From an uncultured bacterium (GTDB lineage Bacteria; UBP6; UBA1177; JAKLFG01): DNA of 64,000 bases. Location of the stretch: the NCBI GenBank assembly GCA_937871295.1, contig CALMRE010000219.1, forward strand, positions 174-64,173. Reading direction: 5' to 3'. How positions within the stretch are numbered: position 1 is the stretch's first letter; each line of letters opens with the position of its first letter. This document shows, piece after piece, positions 12,491-19,881 of this stretch. Below the pieces are notes generated by a model. The model ran no database searches, was not told the DNA's origin, and was given only the letters and a program-made list of their open reading frames with translations. The position numbers and the translations under genes are program-made.

Positions 12491-12554
12491 TTTCTTGATT
12501 TTGTGCGACGGGGCACTAGACTCACGCCGGGTTATGTAGTGAATGGAGGACCTC

Positions 12555-14087
12555 ATGTCTCTGAAACGGCTCCTCATCGACGGCGAAACGCTGACCATCC
12601 GCGATGTGTACGAAGTCGCCTGCTGTGACCGCCCCGTCGGCATCGCCCCCGCGGCGGTGAAAAAGGTCGAGAAATGCCGCCGCTTCGTCGACAAACTCCT
12701 GACGCAGGATAAACCGGTCTACGGCATCAACACTGGCTTTGGCATACTGAGCGAAGTGGCGATCCCCAAAGACCACCTCGACGACCTCCAGATAAACCTC
12801 ATCCGCAGCCACGCCATCGGCATCGGCGACCCGTTCGACCGCGCGACCGTCCGCGCCATCATGCTGCTGCGCGCCAACGTGCTGGCCAAAGGCTTCTCCG
12901 GCGTGCGCCTCTCGACGCTTGAACATCTGGTCGAGTTCATCAACGCCGACATCATCCCCTACATCCCGCAGAAAGGATCGGTCGGCGCGTCGGGCGACCT
13001 CGCCCCGCTGTCGCACCTTGCCCTTGCCCTGTGCGGCGAAGGCTACTGCCTCGGTGACGGTATGTTGCCGGTCGATACGGCCGGAGTGCTGAAAAAGAAA
13101 AAAGTGACGTCGATAACGCTCAAGGCGAAGGAGGGGCTCGCTCTCATCAACGGAACGCAGGTGATGACCGCCGTGGGGGCGCTCACCATCCACCGGCTGA
13201 ACGATCTGGTGAAACTCGCCGACATAGCGCTGGCGCTCACCGTCGACGCGATGCTCGGTACCGACCGCGCCTTCGACGACAAGGTGAACCGCGTTCGCGC
13301 CCATCCCGGCCAGTTCGAGGTATCGCGCAATGTCCGCAAACTCCTTGCTGGTTCATCCATCCGCGAATCGCACCGCTGCTGCACCAAAGTGCAGGATTCC
13401 TACAGCCTCCGCTGCGCCCCGCAGGTCCACGGCGCCATCCGCGACGCGCTGAACCACGCTGCCGAGGTGATCACGACCGAGATAAATTCTTCGACCGACA
13501 ACCCGCTCATCTTCCCCGACGAGCAGGAGACGATATCGGCGGGCAACTTCCACGGTGAGCCGGTGGCGCTGGTGATGGACTACCTCACCGCGGCGGTGAG
13601 CGAACTGGGAAACATCGCCGAGCGGCGTATCGAACAGCTCGTCAACCCGGTCTTTTCACAGGCGCCCGCTTTCCTTATAAAGAACAAAGGGCTCAATTCG
13701 GGCTTCATGATCGTGCAGGTGGCGGCGGCGAGCTTAGTCTCCGAATCGAAGTCGCTCTCATTCCCCGCGTCGGTCGACTCCATCCCCACCTCCGCCGGCA
13801 AAGAGGACCATGTCAGCATGGGGACCATATCGGCGCGGAAGTGCGCGCAGGTGACCGAGAACACCGCCTGCGTCATCGCGCTGGAACTGCTTACCGGCTG
13901 TCAGGCGCTCGAATTCCGCAAGCCGCTCAAGACCGGTATCGCCCTGCGGGCGGTCCATAAGCGGATACGGAGCGAGGTCCCGTTCATGGACCACGACTAC
14001 TTCCTCCATCCCGCCTTCGCGAAGGTCCGGGCGATGGAAACGGAACTCGTCCATATCGCCGAGAAGGCGGTGTGCGGTCTCGAATAA
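12555..14087 (+). CDS. Histidine/aromatic amino acid ammonia-lyase family (HAL/PAL), canonical MIO triad
   Basis: GSVGASGDLAPLSHL contains the Ala-Ser-Gly MIO-forming triad. Full-length at about 510 aa. SD GGAGGA upstream of MSLKR. Confidence 0.8.
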   Translation: MSLKRLLIDGETLTIRDVYEVACCDRPVGIAPAAVKKVEKCRRFVDKLLTQDKPVYGINTGFGILSEVAIPKDHLDDLQINLIRSHAIGIGDPFDRATVRAIMLLRANVLAKGFSGVRLSTLEHLVEFINADIIPYIPQKGSVGASGDLAPLSHLALALCGEGYCLGDGMLPVDTAGVLKKKKVTSITLKAKEGLALINGTQVMTAVGALTIHRLNDLVKLADIALALTVDAMLGTDRAFDDKVNRVRAHPGQFEVSRNVRKLLAGSSIRESHRCCTKVQDSYSLRCAPQVHGAIRDALNHAAEVITTEINSSTDNPLIFPDEQETISAGNFHGEPVALVMDYLTAAVSELGNIAERRIEQLVNPVFSQAPAFLIKNKGLNSGFMIVQVAAASLVSESKSLSFPASVDSIPTSAGKEDHVSMGTISARKCAQVTENTACVIALELLTGCQALEFRKPLKTGIALRAVHKRIRSEVPFMDHDYFLHPAFAKVRAMETELVHIAEKAVCGLE

Positions 14088-14094
14088 TTCCCCG

Positions 14095-16134
14095 TTAATT
14101 CTCCGCGGGATCTTTTTTCTTAATTTTATTCTGCATGCGGCTCAGCATGTCGAGCGCCATCTCTTTCTCGGTGAGCCCGCCGGGGACCCCTTCGGTCAGT
14201 CCCGCCTCGGCGAGGAATACCGACGCGGCGGTCATCTCGCTCTTGCCGCGCACCTTGACCATGCGCGGGATGGTGAGGTGGAGCCGTTCGCGGGCGCGGG
14301 TGAAGGCGACATAGCAGAGCCGCCGTTCCTCTTCGATGTTCCCTTCGTCGAGCGCCATCCGGTTGGGAAGGCCGCCCTGATAGAAACCGGGGATGAAGAC
14401 GGCATCGAACTCGAGCCCCTTGGCGCTGTGGGCGGTGATGATGCTGACGCCCCCCTTCTTTTCGTCCTCGTCGGCCGACTGGATGAGCATCGCGGCGTTG
14501 ATGAAATCTATCCAGAATTCCATCGGGCCGAGGTTCTTCTTCTCGGCGCGGTGATAGCTGACGGCGCTCACGAATTCGCGGATGTTCTCGAGCCGAATGC
14601 CTGCTGCCTCGTCGCTCTCGCCGCTTTTGAGGACCGCCTCTTCGATGCCGGTCGCCCGGATAAGCTCTTCGGCAAAGGGGGCCGGTTCAAGCGCGCGGAG
14701 TTTGGCGATGAGTTCGCGGTGCATCGTCCCGAATGCGCCGATGGCACTCTGTTGCGCCGGGGTGAGTATCGTGTAATCGGCGGCCCGCTGGGTGACGCCG
14801 ATGGCGGGCGATTTTTCGACCGTGGCGATCTCGAAGAGTTTCTCGACCGCCGCCGCGCCGATGCCGCGGGCGGGATAGTTGATGATGCGGCGCAGGCTGA
14901 TCTCGTCGTCGGGGTTGACGAGTATCCGCAGGTAGGCGAGGATATCCTTTATCTCTTTATTCTCGAAGAACTTCTGGCCGCCGATGACGCGGTAGGGGAC
15001 GCGCGAGCGGGCGAAGGCCTTTTCGAACGGGAGCGTCTGGGCATTGGTCCGCACCATGACGGCGCAGGCGGTATACTTCTTTCCGGCGACGACGAGCTTC
15101 GCGATCTCACCTGCCACCTGTTCCGCCTCCTCGATCTCGTCAAGCGCGGTGGCGACCGTTATCGGCGTGTAGCCTTCGGCCTTCTTGCGGGCGAAGACCG
15201 TCTTGGGCGAACGGGTCTTGTTGAAGCCGATGAGCCGCCCGGCGGTCGCGACGATCTCGCTCACCGACCGGAAGTTCTCCTCCATCTTGACGATGCGGGT
15301 GCCGGGGAAATCGTCGGCGAATTCGAGAATGTTCTCGACCCGCGCGCCGCGCCAGCTGTAGATGCTCTGGTCGTCGTCGCCCACCGCGCAGACATTGCCG
15401 TGGACCGACGAGAGCTGGCGGATGAGCCGGTACTGCGCCCGGTTGGTGTCCTGATATTCGTCGACCATGAGGTAGCGCCAGTGGGTTGCGTACTTCTTCC
15501 GGAGTTCTTCGTCGCGGTCGAGCAGTTCGAGCGGCTTCATGATGAGATCGTCGAAATCCATCGCCGCCGCCGCCTTGAGCGTCCGCTGGTACGGTTCATA
15601 GAGCCGTCGCGCGACGGTGCGGCGGATGTCGCCGAGGAAGAAACTTTTGTCGTCCAGCAGCGCCGGATCGTTCTTGAGCGACGATACGATGCCGATGAGG
15701 GTGTGGGCCGAATACTGTTCGCGCGATACCCGTTCCTCCGCCATCACCTTCTTCATCAGTTCGACCTGTTCATAGGGTGAATAGATGACGAAGTGGGCGG
15801 GGTAGCCGATCTTCTTGTGCTCCCGTTTCAGTATCTGGAGACCGAGCGCGTGAAAGGTGCAGATGGTGACCCGTTTGGCGGTCGCCGGATCGTCGATGAG
15901 CGTTCCGGCCCGTTCGCGCATCTCTTTGGCCGCCTTGTTGGTGAAGGTGACGGCGAGTATCTCTTCGGGCGGCACCTTTTTCTGGCCGATGAGGTAGGCG
16001 ATGCGGCAGGTGATGACGCGGGTCTTGCCCGATCCGGCGCCGGCGAAGACAAGGAGCGGTCCGTCGGTGGTGGTGACCGCCTCGCGCTGAGCCGCGGAGA
16101 GGCGAAGTTTCGCTATGTCAAAGGAGGTGGCGAT
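14095..16134 (-). CDS. uvrD: UvrD/PcrA/Rep-family ATP-dependent DNA helicase (start codon uncertain)
   Basis: Motifs Ia-VI are present: TFTNKAA, DEYQDTN, VGDDDQSIY, and C-terminal VTxxTxHSAKGLEFDAVF. The Walker A GAGSGKT is encoded upstream of the GTG (15975) used by the ORF track. The frame is open up to the stop of the upstream gene at 16141 with no ATG/GTG/TTG, so the start may be ATC (16134) or ATA (16116). Confidence 0.75.
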   Translation of the reverse strand: MATSFDIAKLRLSAAQREAVTTTDGPLLVFAGAGSGKTRVITCRIAYLIGQKKVPPEEILAVTFTNKAAKEMRERAGTLIDDPATAKRVTICTFHALGLQILKREHKKIGYPAHFVIYSPYEQVELMKKVMAEERVSREQYSAHTLIGIVSSLKNDPALLDDKSFFLGDIRRTVARRLYEPYQRTLKAAAAMDFDDLIMKPLELLDRDEELRKKYATHWRYLMVDEYQDTNRAQYRLIRQLSSVHGNVCAVGDDDQSIYSWRGARVENILEFADDFPGTRIVKMEENFRSVSEIVATAGRLIGFNKTRSPKTVFARKKAEGYTPITVATALDEIEEAEQVAGEIAKLVVAGKKYTACAVMVRTNAQTLPFEKAFARSRVPYRVIGGQKFFENKEIKDILAYLRILVNPDDEISLRRIINYPARGIGAAAVEKLFEIATVEKSPAIGVTQRAADYTILTPAQQSAIGAFGTMHRELIAKLRALEPAPFAEELIRATGIEEAVLKSGESDEAAGIRLENIREFVSAVSYHRAEKKNLGPMEFWIDFINAAMLIQSADEDEKKGGVSIITAHSAKGLEFDAVFIPGFYQGGLPNRMALDEGNIEEERRLCYVAFTRARERLHLTIPRMVKVRGKSEMTAASVFLAEAGLTEGVPGGLTEKEMALDMLSRMQNKIKKKDPAEN

Positions 16135-16140
16135 GGCTGC

Positions 16141-16590
16141 TTACTTGAGACCCTGCAGAAGAACGATGCCGCCGACCATCGCGAAGATCGCGAACGATTC
16201 GACGATGCCGGGGCTGGCGAACGCGAGACCGGCGATGGAGGGTTTCTTGGCGACCGCGAGTATCGCCGACGAACAGGCTTTACCCTGATAGATCGCCGAG
16301 AACATCAGAGCCACGCCGCAGGCGACGCCGATGGCGAACAGCGGTCCGGTCGATTTGCCCGCCTCGGTCAGCGCATTTATCTTGTCGCTCATGAGGATCA
16401 TCAGAACGAAGCCGTAGATGGTCTGCGACGCAGGCATCGCCGAAAGGGCGACGAACAGGCCGTGACCTTCGTCGGTCTTCGACATGATACCGTGCGAGGT
16501 CATGCCGGCAAGGCCGCAGCCGATGGCCGAGCCGCAGGCGGCCAGACCGAGACACAAAATGGGGCCGAACGAACCGAGATCGGAAAACAT
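16141..16590 (-). CDS. V/A-type ATPase proteolipid (c/K subunit)-like membrane protein, orphan
   Basis: 149 aa with four predicted TM helices in two Gly/Ala-rich hairpins. A conserved Glu in the last helix (GIVESFAIF) is typical of duplicated V-type c subunits. SD AAGGAGG upstream. No other ATPase subunit genes lie nearby. Confidence 0.55.
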   Translation of the reverse strand: MFSDLGSFGPILCLGLAACGSAIGCGLAGMTSHGIMSKTDEGHGLFVALSAMPASQTIYGFVLMILMSDKINALTEAGKSTGPLFAIGVACGVALMFSAIYQGKACSSAILAVAKKPSIAGLAFASPGIVESFAIFAMVGGIVLLQGLK

Positions 16591-16755
16591 AGGGTCCTCC
16601 TTTTATTTAGGAATGATCATCCGCATATCAAAAGAGCCGCGCCCATCATACTCGGAACAAAAAGAAATGCAAAAAACGGGAGGAGCTCGTTTCTTCTTGC
16701 ATTTTCGAGCTCTTCCGCCTATCATCGCCCGATTGATCCGGTAGGAGGTGTAGCG

Positions 16756-17349
16756 ATGCGGAACATGCTGTTGGTGCTCGCGATCGTCGTGACGGCGATG
16801 AGCTTTGCCTGCAAGAAGGAAACGGTGATCGAACGGGCGGCAGACCCGGCGCTGGGACAGGAGCTTATCGCCGTCATCGAGAAAGGCGACGAAGCGGCGG
16901 CCTTCGAACTGATGAAGAAGGGGGCCGATATCAACGCGCGGCAGAAGGGGACCGCCTACACTCCGTATGTGATCGCGGCGAAGAACTGCCTGACCACGAC
17001 GGTCCGCCGGATCGAGGAGCGGGGCGCCGACCTGACGCTTGAGGTCTCGTCGGCCAATACGGTCGTGAAGTCGGCCTACCTCAACGCGGCCATGGCGGGC
17101 TGTCTGGATACCGTGCGTTACTTTGTCGAGGAGAAGCATCTCGACATCAATACGCGTCATCATGTCTGGAACGAGACGATACTCCACAAGGCGGTGCAGA
17201 AACATAACGGATCGCTTGCCCGCTATGCTTTGGAGCGGGGGGTGGACCGGAACATCCGGGACAACAATCAGCGCACGGCGCTCGATCTGGCCAAAGAGAT
17301 CGGGGCGACCGAGGTAGCGGCGCTCATAGAGAAGTATCCGGTGAAGTGA
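16756..17349 (+). CDS. Ankyrin-repeat lipoprotein
   Basis: Lipobox AMSFAC. Three to four ankyrin repeats are present (GADINARQ..., TPYVIAAKN, NETILHKAVQKHN, RTALDLAKE). SD GGAGG upstream of ATG 16756; the ORF-track N-terminal extension was rejected. Confidence 0.65.
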   Translation: MRNMLLVLAIVVTAMSFACKKETVIERAADPALGQELIAVIEKGDEAAAFELMKKGADINARQKGTAYTPYVIAAKNCLTTTVRRIEERGADLTLEVSSANTVVKSAYLNAAMAGCLDTVRYFVEEKHLDINTRHHVWNETILHKAVQKHNGSLARYALERGVDRNIRDNNQRTALDLAKEIGATEVAALIEKYPVK

Positions 17350-17359
17350 TCGGGATCGT

Positions 17360-17767
17360 TCAGGTCGGGATATATTCGTTCTTGTCCGATTTCCAGATCA
17401 GATAATCGCGGTACTCCTTGTCGATGAGGTCGGAGTTGCCGCTGTTGTAGACCATGATATTGCGCAGGAAGATGAAGGAGTCGAGTTCAAGATCGCGCAA
17501 CTGGACCGCGAAACCGTCGGTATCCTTGCGCGCCACCGTCCCCTTGACCGTCACCCCCATCTCGGAGTGTTCGCTCGACAGTTCGAGCCGCACATCGACC
17601 GCGGTCCCCATCGCCAGTTCGGGACCCTTCGCGAAGTAGATGCCCGAAAGACTCAGGTTGCGCACCTCGCACGGGATCTCGGCGCCGTTATGAAGTATCC
17701 GGGCGGCGACCTCGAAGTCGACCCGTGAAAGCATCCGTTTGACCATCACACCACTCGTAGTGAACAA
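17360..17767 (-). CDS. PilZ-domain protein (putative c-di-GMP binding)
   Basis: RMLSR (RxxxR) is followed after about 19 aa by NLSLSG ([D/N]xSxxG). Confidence 0.5.
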   Translation of the reverse strand: MFTTSGVMVKRMLSRVDFEVAARILHNGAEIPCEVRNLSLSGIYFAKGPELAMGTAVDVRLELSSEHSEMGVTVKGTVARKDTDGFAVQLRDLELDSFIFLRNIMVYNSGNSDLIDKEYRDYLIWKSDKNEYIPT

Positions 17768-17811
17768 CTAACGCCCGCATACTATATGCGCCGGAACGGT
17801 TTGTCAACAAA

Positions 17812-17844
17812 CAGAGGGGTCAGTCCTCGACATTAGACATTTCT
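17812..17844. repeat. Left terminal inverted repeat of the RAYT-like element
   Basis: 33 bp; 32/33 reverse-complement match to 18863-18895. Confidence 0.6.
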
Positions 17845-17849
17845 CTGCT

Positions 17850-18806
17850 CTATTTCGACAAGTTGTGATCGATAGTCGCCGCGATATCCCGCAGTCGTTT
17901 GTTCTGTGTCATGGCTTCATCCAAGCGCCCCGTCAGCTTGGAAACTGCCTGTCCCTTCATATCGAAACGCGCGCCGATCTCCGCCAAGGAGCCCGCTCCG
18001 TGCCGCCGCAGCGCCCACAGGTACCACTTGAACGAATCGTCGCCGCGCCGTTTCTCGATGGGCGCGCCCTCTTTGAGCTTCAGCGCCTTGCGCACCGCCG
18101 CCGCTACCGCTTCTTCGCTTCCGGCCAGCAGTCGCCGCGCCTCGGGCATATGCGCCACCGGCGTTTCCCGCAGGCGCACCTTCATCTCGTCCACGAAATC
18201 TTCGCCGCCGAGCAGCGAGTTCGCGCCGTAGATGCTTGCGGCGTCGGGTTTGCGCCTCCATACCTCGTCGATGATGGCGAGGTAGTTCTTCCGGCCGCCG
18301 CAGAGTTTCATGACCTCGTCGGTGGTCACCGTGAGCGTCAGTTCGTTCTTCTTCGCGGGCGGGTTCTTGCCGATGTAGTGCGCCATGCTCGACCACCGCC
18401 ACGCTTCGGGGCTTTTCACCAGCCCGGCGCGCACCGGATTGAGGTGGATGTAGGCCGACACCGTCGCGAGGTAGCGTTCCTCCTCGACGAGCACCGACTT
18501 GAAGCGGCCTTGGAACAGCGATCCGACGAGTTGATGCCGCGCCCGGTACCACGATGCGTAACTTGAATTGAGAGTATGCATCGCCCGCGAGAGGTTGGCG
18601 TCGGGGGTGCCGACGAGCAGGTGGTAATGGTTGTCCATCAGGCAGTAGCCGTGCACGACGAGGTTGAACCGTATCTGTACGACGGCGAGGCGCCCGAGGA
18701 ACTCTTCGCGGTCCTTGTCGTCGGTGAAGATCGCTTCGCGGCGGTGTCCGCGGTTGATGACATGGTAGAGCGCGTTCTCATACGCGAGGCGCAATGGGCG
18801 GGCCAT
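17850..18806 (-). CDS. IS200/RAYT-like HUH (Y1) transposase fused to a DnaA C-terminal-like HTH domain
   Basis: HUH motif HGYCLMDNHYHLL. The IS200-like C-terminal helix YIHLNPVRAGLV is present. The C-terminal roughly 120 aa is helical and DnaA-domain-IV-like. Confidence 0.7.
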   Translation of the reverse strand: MARPLRLAYENALYHVINRGHRREAIFTDDKDREEFLGRLAVVQIRFNLVVHGYCLMDNHYHLLVGTPDANLSRAMHTLNSSYASWYRARHQLVGSLFQGRFKSVLVEEERYLATVSAYIHLNPVRAGLVKSPEAWRWSSMAHYIGKNPPAKKNELTLTVTTDEVMKLCGGRKNYLAIIDEVWRRKPDAASIYGANSLLGGEDFVDEMKVRLRETPVAHMPEARRLLAGSEEAVAAAVRKALKLKEGAPIEKRRGDDSFKWYLWALRRHGAGSLAEIGARFDMKGQAVSKLTGRLDEAMTQNKRLRDIAATIDHNLSK

Positions 18807-18862
18807 GGATTCCTCCGTCGGTCAGTACGGCGGAGAGATATCAGAACGATCAACTCAAGTCA

Positions 18863-18895
18863 AGAAATGTCTTATGTCGAGGACTGACCCCTCTG
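18863..18895. repeat. Right terminal inverted repeat of the RAYT-like element
   Basis: 33 bp. It contains an in-frame ATG (18874) for the downstream znuA-like ORF. Confidence 0.6.
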
Positions 18896-18957
18896 CATTG
18901 ACTATCCTTCTTTCCTCTGCTATTGTGGCGGGCGTATGTGGTAATGGTGAGGACAAC

Positions 18958-19881
18958 TTGCAGAAAATTGTCTGGATAACGATCCCTCTTCTGATCGTCG
19001 GTGTCATCGGTTGGCTCATCTTCGTCAATGCCGACCGGGCGAAACCCGCCCGCGCTGCGGCGACGGTCGCTCCGCTGCAGGTGCACGAGGGGCCAACGCC
19101 CGTTTTCGTCTCCATTCCGCCGCTGAAATATATCGCCGAACGGATCGGCGGCGACCGGGTCACGGTCACCGCGTTGGTCCGCCCGGGAGCAGATCCGCAC
19201 ACTTTCGAGCCGTTGCCCGATCAGATGGCGGGGTTGTCGACGGCGAAATTCTTTTTCCTTGCCGGCGATCCTTCGGAACTGGCGTGGCGCGACAAGGTGC
19301 GCGGTTCGTACCCCGATCTTACTTTCATAGAGACCGGCGCCGCCGTCATCAAGCGGCCGGCCGATGGAGAAGAGGAGCACCACGGCGGCGTCGATCCGCA
19401 CATCTGGCTGGCGCCCGAGCTGTTGCGCATTCAGGCCCGTTCGATGGCGGCGGTCTTCATGACGGCCGACAAGCCGAATGCGGCCTATTACAAGGAACGG
19501 CTCGATGTCTTTACCGTCGCGATGGATGCGCTCGACGGCCGGATAAAGGAGTTGCTCGCGCCGTACAAGGGGCGCAGTTTCATCGTGTTCCATCCCTCGT
19601 GGGGCTATTTCGCCGACGCCTACGGCCTGAAACAGGTGCCGATCGAGATGGCGGGCAAGGGGCCGGGGGCGCGTCATCTGGCGGCGGTGACCGACATCGT
19701 GCGGCGTGAAAAGGTTTCCGCGATCTTCGCCGCCCCGCAGTTCCCGGTAGGCGAGGCGCAGTCGGTCGCCGACGCGACCGGGGCGAAGGTCGTTACGATC
19801 GATCCGCTCGCCGAGGATGTCGAAAAGAATCTTTCGGCGGTCGCCGACGCGCTTCTTGCGTCGTTCGGAGGGAAGAAGTGA
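18958..19881 (+). CDS. znuA: Metal (Zn/Mn) ABC transporter substrate-binding protein, ZnuA/TroA family
   Basis: Signal anchor IVWITIPLLIVGVIGWLIF; TroA-like His/Asp metal ligands (DPHIW, HPSWGYF). A TTG start at 18958 with SD GGTGAGGA is proposed. An alternative ATG at 18874 lies inside the right inverted repeat. Confidence 0.6.
   Translation: MQKIVWITIPLLIVGVIGWLIFVNADRAKPARAAATVAPLQVHEGPTPVFVSIPPLKYIAERIGGDRVTVTALVRPGADPHTFEPLPDQMAGLSTAKFFFLAGDPSELAWRDKVRGSYPDLTFIETGAAVIKRPADGEEEHHGGVDPHIWLAPELLRIQARSMAAVFMTADKPNAAYYKERLDVFTVAMDALDGRIKELLAPYKGRSFIVFHPSWGYFADAYGLKQVPIEMAGKGPGARHLAAVTDIVRREKVSAIFAAPQFPVGEAQSVADATGAKVVTIDPLAEDVEKNLSAVADALLASFGGKK

Follow-up and report, generated by a model that had tools for sequence, protein, structure and literature searches.

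Where does translation of a helicase gene begin if its reading frame holds no canonical start codon ahead of the Walker A motif, and why does a gene for a V-type ATPase proteolipid lie directly upstream of it, away from every other ATPase gene? Both questions are raised by a locus in a 64-kb stretch of DNA (64,000 nucleotides of contig CALMRE010000219.1, hereafter the window) from an uncultured bacterium of the UBP6 lineage. The gene for the proteolipid, subunit K, and that for a UvrD/PcrA/Rep-family helicase are both encoded on the minus strand (Table 1). A preliminary description had offered a non-canonical start, translational coupling or readthrough, or a sequencing error at the junction as possible explanations. 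Our analysis supports a helicase start at a non-canonical ATC or ATA in a tightly abutted bicistron. The best explanation, which as a whole we judge reasonably probable, is that the helicase would be translated from an AUC by reinitiation behind the K stop codon, and that K would come from a split ATPase operon.

Directly behind the TAA of K the same frame runs on with the codons GCA GCC ATC GCC ACC TCC TTT GAC ATA GCG AAA CTT CGC CTC TCC GCG GCT CAG CGC GAG and stays open through to the helicase stop at 14097..14095. As the preliminary description had stated, this frame contains no ATG, GTG or TTG between the K stop and Walker A and leaves ATC and ATA only; the first canonical codon, GTG 15975..15973, lies beyond the motif. 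The zero spacer noted there holds for the open frame and not for the starts, as the two candidates are found 6 nucleotides (nt; ATC) and 24 nt (ATA) past the stop.

Is this junction real? We found the same TAA-GCAGCC-ATC...ATA arrangement in the window and in the strains L001 (Logan SRR24236060), L097 (Ga0116153) and L098 (Ga0074195), four assemblies that represent different samples and pipelines (NCBI/ENA, Logan and two JGI metagenomes). Pairwise synonymous divergence (dS) among these four ATC-lineage strains ranged from 0.22 to 0.5, and 32-42% of four-fold sites were variable among the four. Because assemblies this diverged share an identical junction, the sequencing or assembly error considered before is excluded. 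Complete copies of the helicase gene all measure 2037 nt from the ATC and carry neither stops nor indels (the L098 copy runs off its contig). In pairwise comparisons of the four strains, the 53 codons from ATC to GTG 15975 showed 10-15.5 synonymous and 1-6 non-synonymous differences, with a ratio of non-synonymous to synonymous divergence (dN/dS) of 0.03-0.17, in the same range as the remainder of the gene (0.04-0.11). These 53 codons are therefore under purifying selection as protein in the helicase frame. Both the Pfam and the NCBIfam helicase models begin inside this region, and Walker A, GAGSGKT, which is encoded under the same purifying selection, can be part of the product only if translation begins at ATC or ATA. 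Five of the six public helicase protein records of the window lineage (P0105, P0359-P0362) nevertheless describe the 626-amino-acid (aa) product from the internal GTG, while NCBI record HOW52806.1 (P0358), of a sister strain, starts at the ATA. Since selection acts on the stretch before the GTG as protein, the annotated 626-aa helicase is most probably not the functional protein.

Relatives of the window strain carry public labels that are inconsistent (Spirochaetota, Sumerlaeota or UBP6). The order K, helicase and convergent histidine ammonia-lyase-like gene is kept throughout a GC-rich clade among them (GC content 0.54-0.62), within which several lineages can be told apart by the helicase start. 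Counted from the K stop, a GTG follows TAG + 18 nt in L002-L005 and L099 (GTG-a lineage, MPFSFSIEQL), TAG + 17 nt in L100 (GTG-b, MSSSFDISRL) and TAG + 24 nt in L133 (GTG-c, MNSSFDIARL); an ATG follows TAG + 28 nt in L006, L007, L101 and L102 (ATG lineage, MTSGRSFLSGL); and the window, L001, L097 and L098 have TAA + 6 nt and then ATC, giving (I/M)ATSFDIAKL. The comparison with orthologous N-termini that had been proposed earlier was informative: the GTG and ATG sister lineages all start the helicase 5' of Walker A and not at the downstream GTG. The window ATC stands in the same register as the GTG of L002, L100 and L133 (start-x-x-S-F-[DS]-I-x-x-L). Both ATC and ATA are invariant in all four window-lineage strains, and the five codons between them show one change, a synonymous one. 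Counted from the ATC, 31 residues precede Walker A, like in the GTG and ATG lineages of the clade; from the ATA there are 25, and 21-28 in outgroup orthologues. Conserved ATC and ATA codons, selection on the codons before the GTG and sister starts in register thus lend support to the option of a non-canonical start.

In a neighbour-joining tree of the helicase, the ATC lineage has the ATG lineage as its sister and nests within the GTG/ATG clade, so that the loss of the canonical start is, judged from this tree, derived. No Shine-Dalgarno-like motif was seen 5' of the helicase in any clade lineage examined, and none precedes the ATC, the ATA or GTG 15975 of the window. Spacers of 17 nt (L100) and 28 nt (ATG lineage) put the helicase out of frame with K, and the spacer is short (6 nt) only in the lineage without a canonical start. 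The gene 5' of K varies by lineage (Ank, TetR or PilZ), and K and helicase are adjacent in every GC-rich sub-lineage. Because the helicase orthologue of the AT-rich outgroup relative L136 stands alone without K, sequence comparison identifies the adjacency as a derived feature of the GC-rich clade.

Which of the two codons would be used? In E. coli, AUC and AUA initiate at ~0.02-3% of AUG and yield an N-terminal Met (bioRxiv 10.1101/063800). Reinitiation behind a stop codon declines steeply with distance, by 40-80% at 14 nt and almost to nothing by ~20-38 nt (PMC10666635). We prefer AUC 16134..16132, reached by ribosomes that terminate on K, over AUA 16116..16114 because the former lies 6 nt and the latter 24 nt from the stop, neither has a Shine-Dalgarno sequence, and it is precisely the lineage lacking a canonical start that has the short spacer; both codons may be used. 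In the course of events that we propose, an ancestral GTG or ATG located 17-28 nt past the K stop would have been replaced by an ATC just 6 nt past it. The helicase would still be translated from 5' of Walker A, most likely from the AUC, with the initiator tRNA giving an N-terminal Met. As no Shine-Dalgarno sequence precedes the helicase, ribosomes terminating at the K stop would reinitiate at the AUC, with the AUA as an alternative or additional start, and a low helicase output would be tied to the translation of K. Helicase translation is in our view probably coupled to that of K by termination-reinitiation. A stricter version, in which the helicase is made only by ribosomes that finish K and restart at the AUC 6 nt on, and in which a spacer deletion (from 17-28 to 6 nt) compensated for the loss of the start, is put forward tentatively and is itself rather doubtful. 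If true, helicase output would amount to a small, constant fraction of that of K, and two genes of unrelated function would be linked in nature, and stably over evolution, by obligate reinitiation at a near-cognate codon.

Known systems resemble the locus in part. E. coli infC and pcnB (AUU starts) likewise have a near-cognate AUH codon as the sole possible start 5' of an essential domain, conserved among strains. The window helicase differs in its AUC or AUA, in having no Shine-Dalgarno sequence and in beginning 6 or 24 nt past the stop of a preceding gene, and nothing points to IF3-type autoregulation for this helicase, which is known here from its sequence alone. With pairs coupled by termination-reinitiation (Huber et al. 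2023, PMC10666635) the locus shares location on the same strand, a very short distance from stop to start and a distal gene without its own ribosome-binding site. However, such pairs typically have a 4- or 1-nt overlap and begin at canonical codons, and in many cases their products belong to the same complex, whereas we find a distance of +6 nt, a near-cognate start and unrelated functions.

If the helicase gene is intact, is its upstream neighbour a genuine ATPase subunit? K matched Pfam ATP-synt_C (PF00137) in two stretches (E 2.3e-21, 76 bits vs 24) and reached 162 bits with the NCBIfam equivalog NF007200, above the cutoff of 108; its two tandem c-subunit hairpins, with four transmembrane (TM) helices, match the family model. 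These matches confirm the proteolipid of the preliminary description, and the conserved Glu that it had placed in the last helix is E131. In an alignment with E. hirae NtpK (2BL2), residues L61/T64/Q65/Q110/E139 correspond to M52/S55/Q56/Q102/E131 of K; the positions of the Na+ ligands, taken from the list for NtpK in PMC2359735, are retained. K is 64-76% identical to the K subunits that end complete operons in AT-rich relatives (GC 0.30-0.50), is nearly invariant throughout the GC-rich clade and shows a dN/dS of 0-0.095 among the four strains. By these comparisons K is a bona fide, strongly constrained V-type ATPase K subunit. That it would serve as the c-ring subunit of a Na+-type bacterial V-ATPase belongs to our best explanation and shares its fair, not high, probability. 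NtpK and the K subunits of bacterial E-C-A-B-D-I-K operons, here those of uncultured relatives labelled Spirochaetota, Chlamydiota and Verrucomicrobia, share with it the double hairpin of four helices, the Glu that binds the ion and the complete set of Na+ ligands. Location in such an operon, beside I, is usual for K genes, though membership of the family does not depend on it. Unlike the K subunits of these operons, the window K stands away from I and any other ATPase gene, with a promoter-like site and Shine-Dalgarno sequence of its own and a helicase next to it.

Where, then, is the rest of the enzyme? In tblastn searches with E, C-like, A, B, D and I subunits from L014, neither the window nor the sequences flanking seven related loci yielded another V-ATPase gene; K alone matched. 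The AT-rich relatives have K at the end of an operon, E-DUF2764(C-like)-A-B-D-I-K, and a scan of a genome collection, based on an alignment of subunit I, placed K downstream of I in 68 of 80 loci. Most of the other loci end at a contig edge soon after I (L021 shows the start of K there); L017 and L018 carry other sequence after I, and the two distant loci L090 and L092 gave no K match. The scan returned no locus of the GC-rich clade, on which it is uninformative because the I protein of that clade differs in both search patterns (PSYQDWDP and MIFGDAGY). A search with subunit B, combined with the accession numbers of cluster members, led through P0275 (HSA34605.1) to an operon without K. On the GC-rich contigs L141 (285 kb), L142 and L144 the gene order is E-DUF2764-A-B-D-I, with unrelated genes after I; the 21-kb locus of L141 contains no K in the 6.7 kb before the operon or in the 7.5 kb after it. 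The I subunit of this operon keeps its essential Arg motif, LSYLRLFALGLSG.

The contigs with the K-less operon have a GC content of 0.58-0.61, compared with 0.30-0.53 in all other relatives. In tetranucleotide composition they correlate with the window, L006, L102 and L133 at 0.94-0.97, just as members of the clade do among themselves; controls whose GC is higher than that of the other relatives gave 0.69-0.78. The contigs stem from the same metagenome series as the clade, the GC-rich B proteins are 89-99.8% identical to each other, and K (HSA32098.1) and helicase (HSA32099.1) of the ATG lineage share their accession prefix with B (HSA34605.1), from which they are ~2,500 numbers apart. On the basis of GC, tetranucleotides, accessions and metagenome series, we assigned the K-less operon contigs to the GC-rich clade. 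For the clade, the simplest reading is that the operon has been split and that K is provided in trans: the K gene would have been separated from E, C-like DUF2764, A, B, D and I, which would lie elsewhere in the genome without K, and we infer the same for the window's own genome. The orphan status first given to the proteolipid therefore holds within the window and not beyond it, and the complete V/A-ATPase operon that might have been expected elsewhere has its counterpart in E-C-A-B-D-I on clade-assigned contigs, K excepted. On this reading, what looked like an orphan proteolipid would be an ordinary relocated subunit gene. F-type atp genes lie in two loci in alphaproteobacteria and cyanobacteria. 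There too a gene of the membrane rotor is located apart from those of the catalytic part, and the subunits come together in trans; the window case differs in that the enzyme is of the V-type and a single K gene is detached.

Further observations were made on the ATPase loci. Two sets of candidates from the B-subunit homologues were set aside: P0307, the first pick of a filter on amino-acid composition, was a false lead (L137, GC 0.44, K adjoining I), and P0285 and P0286 represent GC-rich contigs that end before I and are uninformative on K. The I subunit of L141 (11947..13797) gave a weak Pfam V_ATPase_I match and is 43% identical to that of L014; the gene after it encodes a 23S_rRNA_IVP-like four-helix protein (27 bits, under the cutoff of 33.8). 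In the AT-rich relative represented by L013 and L015 (2995..9960), two genes (505 aa and 1812 aa; 7 kb) lie between I and K, which suggests an independent partial separation of K and a possible intermediate. No K was found in the 2-5.6 kb after I in L017 (after 7405) and L018 (after 9875), consistent with the same insertion as in L013 and L015. L137 (6751..21308, GCA_030604195.1) holds two tandem V-type ATPase gene sets, the first complete with K and the second ~2.7 kb on. The gene for the catalytic A subunit carries an in-frame TAG at codon 285 in L138 (8239..10008) and L139 (1769..3538), which are independent JGI assemblies of a GC-rich relative; L140 and L141 read GAG (Glu) at this codon. 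The TAG is a true nonsense mutation or else a stop that is suppressed. L133 carries an Rnf-type cluster (14162..19204; RnfB-, RnfC-, RnfD- and FMN_bind-type genes and two Rnf-Nqr-family genes) ~2 kb from the K-helicase pair, which fits an anaerobe with ion-gradient, possibly Na+, energetics.

Several points weigh against reinitiation at the AUC and K supply from a split operon. The invariance of the 6-nt spacer alone is not significant, as with ~35% of four-fold sites variable among the four strains, six invariant sites would be met by chance with a probability of ~0.075. RNA structure at the junction is no better than in shuffled sequences (z = +0.7), which leaves nothing to suggest structure-based coupling. 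To our knowledge, K and a DNA helicase share no common function, unlike most reinitiation-coupled pairs. The efficiencies of near-cognate initiation are E. coli values, and the host belongs to an uncultured lineage. The K-less operon is linked to the sister ATG lineage, and this only by composition, accession block and metagenome series. Finally, we infer the use of AUC, and it is AUA that gives a leader of outgroup length and that NCBI chose as the start. These last two points are also the strength of the main rival, in which the helicase (673 aa) starts at the AUA by weak de novo or leaky initiation and the codons from ATC to ATA form an untranslated leader. The record with this start, HOW52806.1, reflects the choice of the Prokaryotic Genome Annotation Pipeline in the sister strain, the 25 residues before Walker A match the 21-28 of the outgroup, and in E. 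coli the competence of AUA equals that of AUC (bioRxiv 10.1101/063800). However, the AUA is placed 24 nt past the K stop, where reinitiation is already weak (PMC10666635), and has no Shine-Dalgarno sequence; the five codons ahead of it still encode the S-F-D common to the GTG lineages, their sole change among the four strains being synonymous; and the codon in register with the sister GTG starts is the ATC. We regard an exclusive AUA start as unlikely, though as the most serious competitor of the AUC.

Other alternatives are far less probable. If the helicase gene were decaying, or yielded only the 626-aa product without Walker A, one could understand why GTG 15975 is the first canonical start and why most public records begin there. 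Yet the 53 codons before this GTG are as strongly selected as the remainder of the gene at dS values of up to 0.5, none of the four strains shows a frameshift or stop, the GTG has no Shine-Dalgarno sequence, and a UvrD-family protein without motif I would be without ATPase activity; this makes the idea very improbable. Readthrough of the K stop into a K-helicase fusion protein could draw on the frames of the window lineage, which are continuous save for a single TAA. Since spacers of 17 nt and 28 nt put the helicase of sister lineages out of frame with K, no fusion can have been inherited from an ancestor, and TAA followed by G is not known as a leaky context in bacteria. Topology speaks against a fusion as well. 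The conserved AKKP loop that joins TM3 to TM4 in K is presumably the cytoplasmic loop of c subunits; TM4 would therefore leave the cytoplasm, and the K C-terminus, with any helicase fused to it, would end up outside, on the wrong membrane side. Coupling and readthrough had earlier been named in one breath; the former is probable, whereas the latter, whose frame relation to K is not conserved in sister lineages, is exceedingly unlikely. An artefact that destroyed the true start has nothing in its favour beyond the oddity of the junction and, with that junction recurring across samples, pipelines and divergence, a practically negligible chance of being correct. With respect to K, a true orphan with a V-ATPase-independent role, tied functionally to the helicase, would agree with an adjacency that persists in every GC-rich sub-lineage though the gene 5' of K changes, and with a window devoid of other V-ATPase genes. 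But the K-less operon with its intact I on clade-assigned contigs needs a c-ring, K keeps every ion-site residue and hardly varies in the clade, and the helicase orthologues of the outgroup do without K. We therefore give such a role little credence, and continue to favour reinitiation at the AUC and a split operon.

The layout of the locus is summarized in Table 1. The promoter candidate found by consensus scan can alternatively be read as TTGCAT-16-TATGAT; the four ATC-lineage strains all preserve its block amid variable flanks. The Shine-Dalgarno sequence of K is a strong one, and a GGAGG at similar spacing precedes many other window genes too. A terminator scan found no terminator between the K and helicase genes, and there is no room for a promoter. 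As part of our best explanation, and at its reasonable probability, the two would form a two-gene transcription unit with the promoter-like site ~55-80 nt 5' of K. No Rfam match was obtained across 13500..17500 at E up to 1.

Table 1. Features of the K-helicase locus, in positions of the window
Feature	Position	Strand	Detail and basis
Sigma-70-like promoter candidate of the K-helicase transcript	16645..16673	-	TTTGCA-17-TATGAT; consensus scan
Shine-Dalgarno sequence of the K gene, AAGGAGGA	16596..16603	-	5 nt 5' of ATG; read from sequence
V-type ATPase proteolipid subunit K, 149 aa, four TM helices	16141..16590	-	stop TAA 16143..16141
Intercistronic spacer GCAGCC, 6 nt, K stop to ATC	16135..16140	-	invariant in window, L001, L097 and L098
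ATC, preferred candidate helicase start, 679 aa	16132..16134	-	register of sister GTG starts
ATA, alternative candidate helicase start, 673 aa	16114..16116	-	start in NCBI record HOW52806.1
Walker A GAGSGKT of helicase	16021..16041	-	translation; inside Pfam UvrD-helicase match
GTG, first canonical start in helicase frame, 626-aa product without Walker A	15973..15975	-	open reading frame list
UvrD/PcrA/Rep-family superfamily 1 helicase gene, 679 codons from ATC	14095..16134	-	stop 14097..14095

Some features of the surroundings were recorded in addition. The helicase gene converges with an aromatic-amino-acid-lyase gene (12543..14087, PF00221); their ends are separated by 7 nt, with no terminator-like hairpin between them (window 14087..14095). 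On the plus strand (16115..16288), antisense to the junction, AAAGGAGGTGGCG lies 5' of an ATG at 16133, in a short open reading frame that runs antisense to K up to 16288. This perfect Shine-Dalgarno sequence is the reverse complement of the helicase codons ACC TCC TTT and is probably due to chance, because it is weakened in L001 and L098 (ACT). Further upstream of K, between the PilZ and ZnuA genes, lies a 318-aa gene with an IS200-like Y1 transposase domain (17850..18806, minus strand; PF01797, E 1.4e-14). It looks like an insertion specific to the window strain, since the PilZ and ZnuA genes are just 144 nt apart in the sister strain L001.

To which helicase does the reading frame correspond? 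Pfam UvrD-helicase (PF00580, E 3.2e-86) matched from residue 15 of the frame, followed by UvrD_C (PF13361, E 1.1e-65). A DEYQD box is visible in the translation, which we take to be motif II. All NCBIfam scores fell under the equivalog cutoffs (PcrA 641 vs 911 bits, Rep 572 vs 951, UvrD 499 vs 1144). Because it remains below each of them and is somewhat short at 673-679 aa, the protein is by sequence a member of the UvrD/PcrA/Rep family that is not assignable to one of the three orthologues. With the superfamily 1A helicases PcrA, UvrD and Rep it shares the PF00580 and PF13361 architecture and an encoded Walker A motif; the sub-cutoff scores and the modest length set it apart.

These findings overturn nothing in current understanding. 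A lone V-ATPase K gene should be read first as part of a split operon and not as a gene of orphan function. The helicase gene most likely represents a rare use of AUC or AUA as a conserved non-canonical start, for which there are precedents, and is widely mis-annotated: gene callers limited to ATG, GTG and TTG misplace the start of a helicase that selection shows to be intact. The locus is a clean natural example of a canonical start that was lost while the gene was long kept (dS up to 0.5), and it lends itself to asking to what extent an important gene can live on reinitiation and near-cognate initiation.

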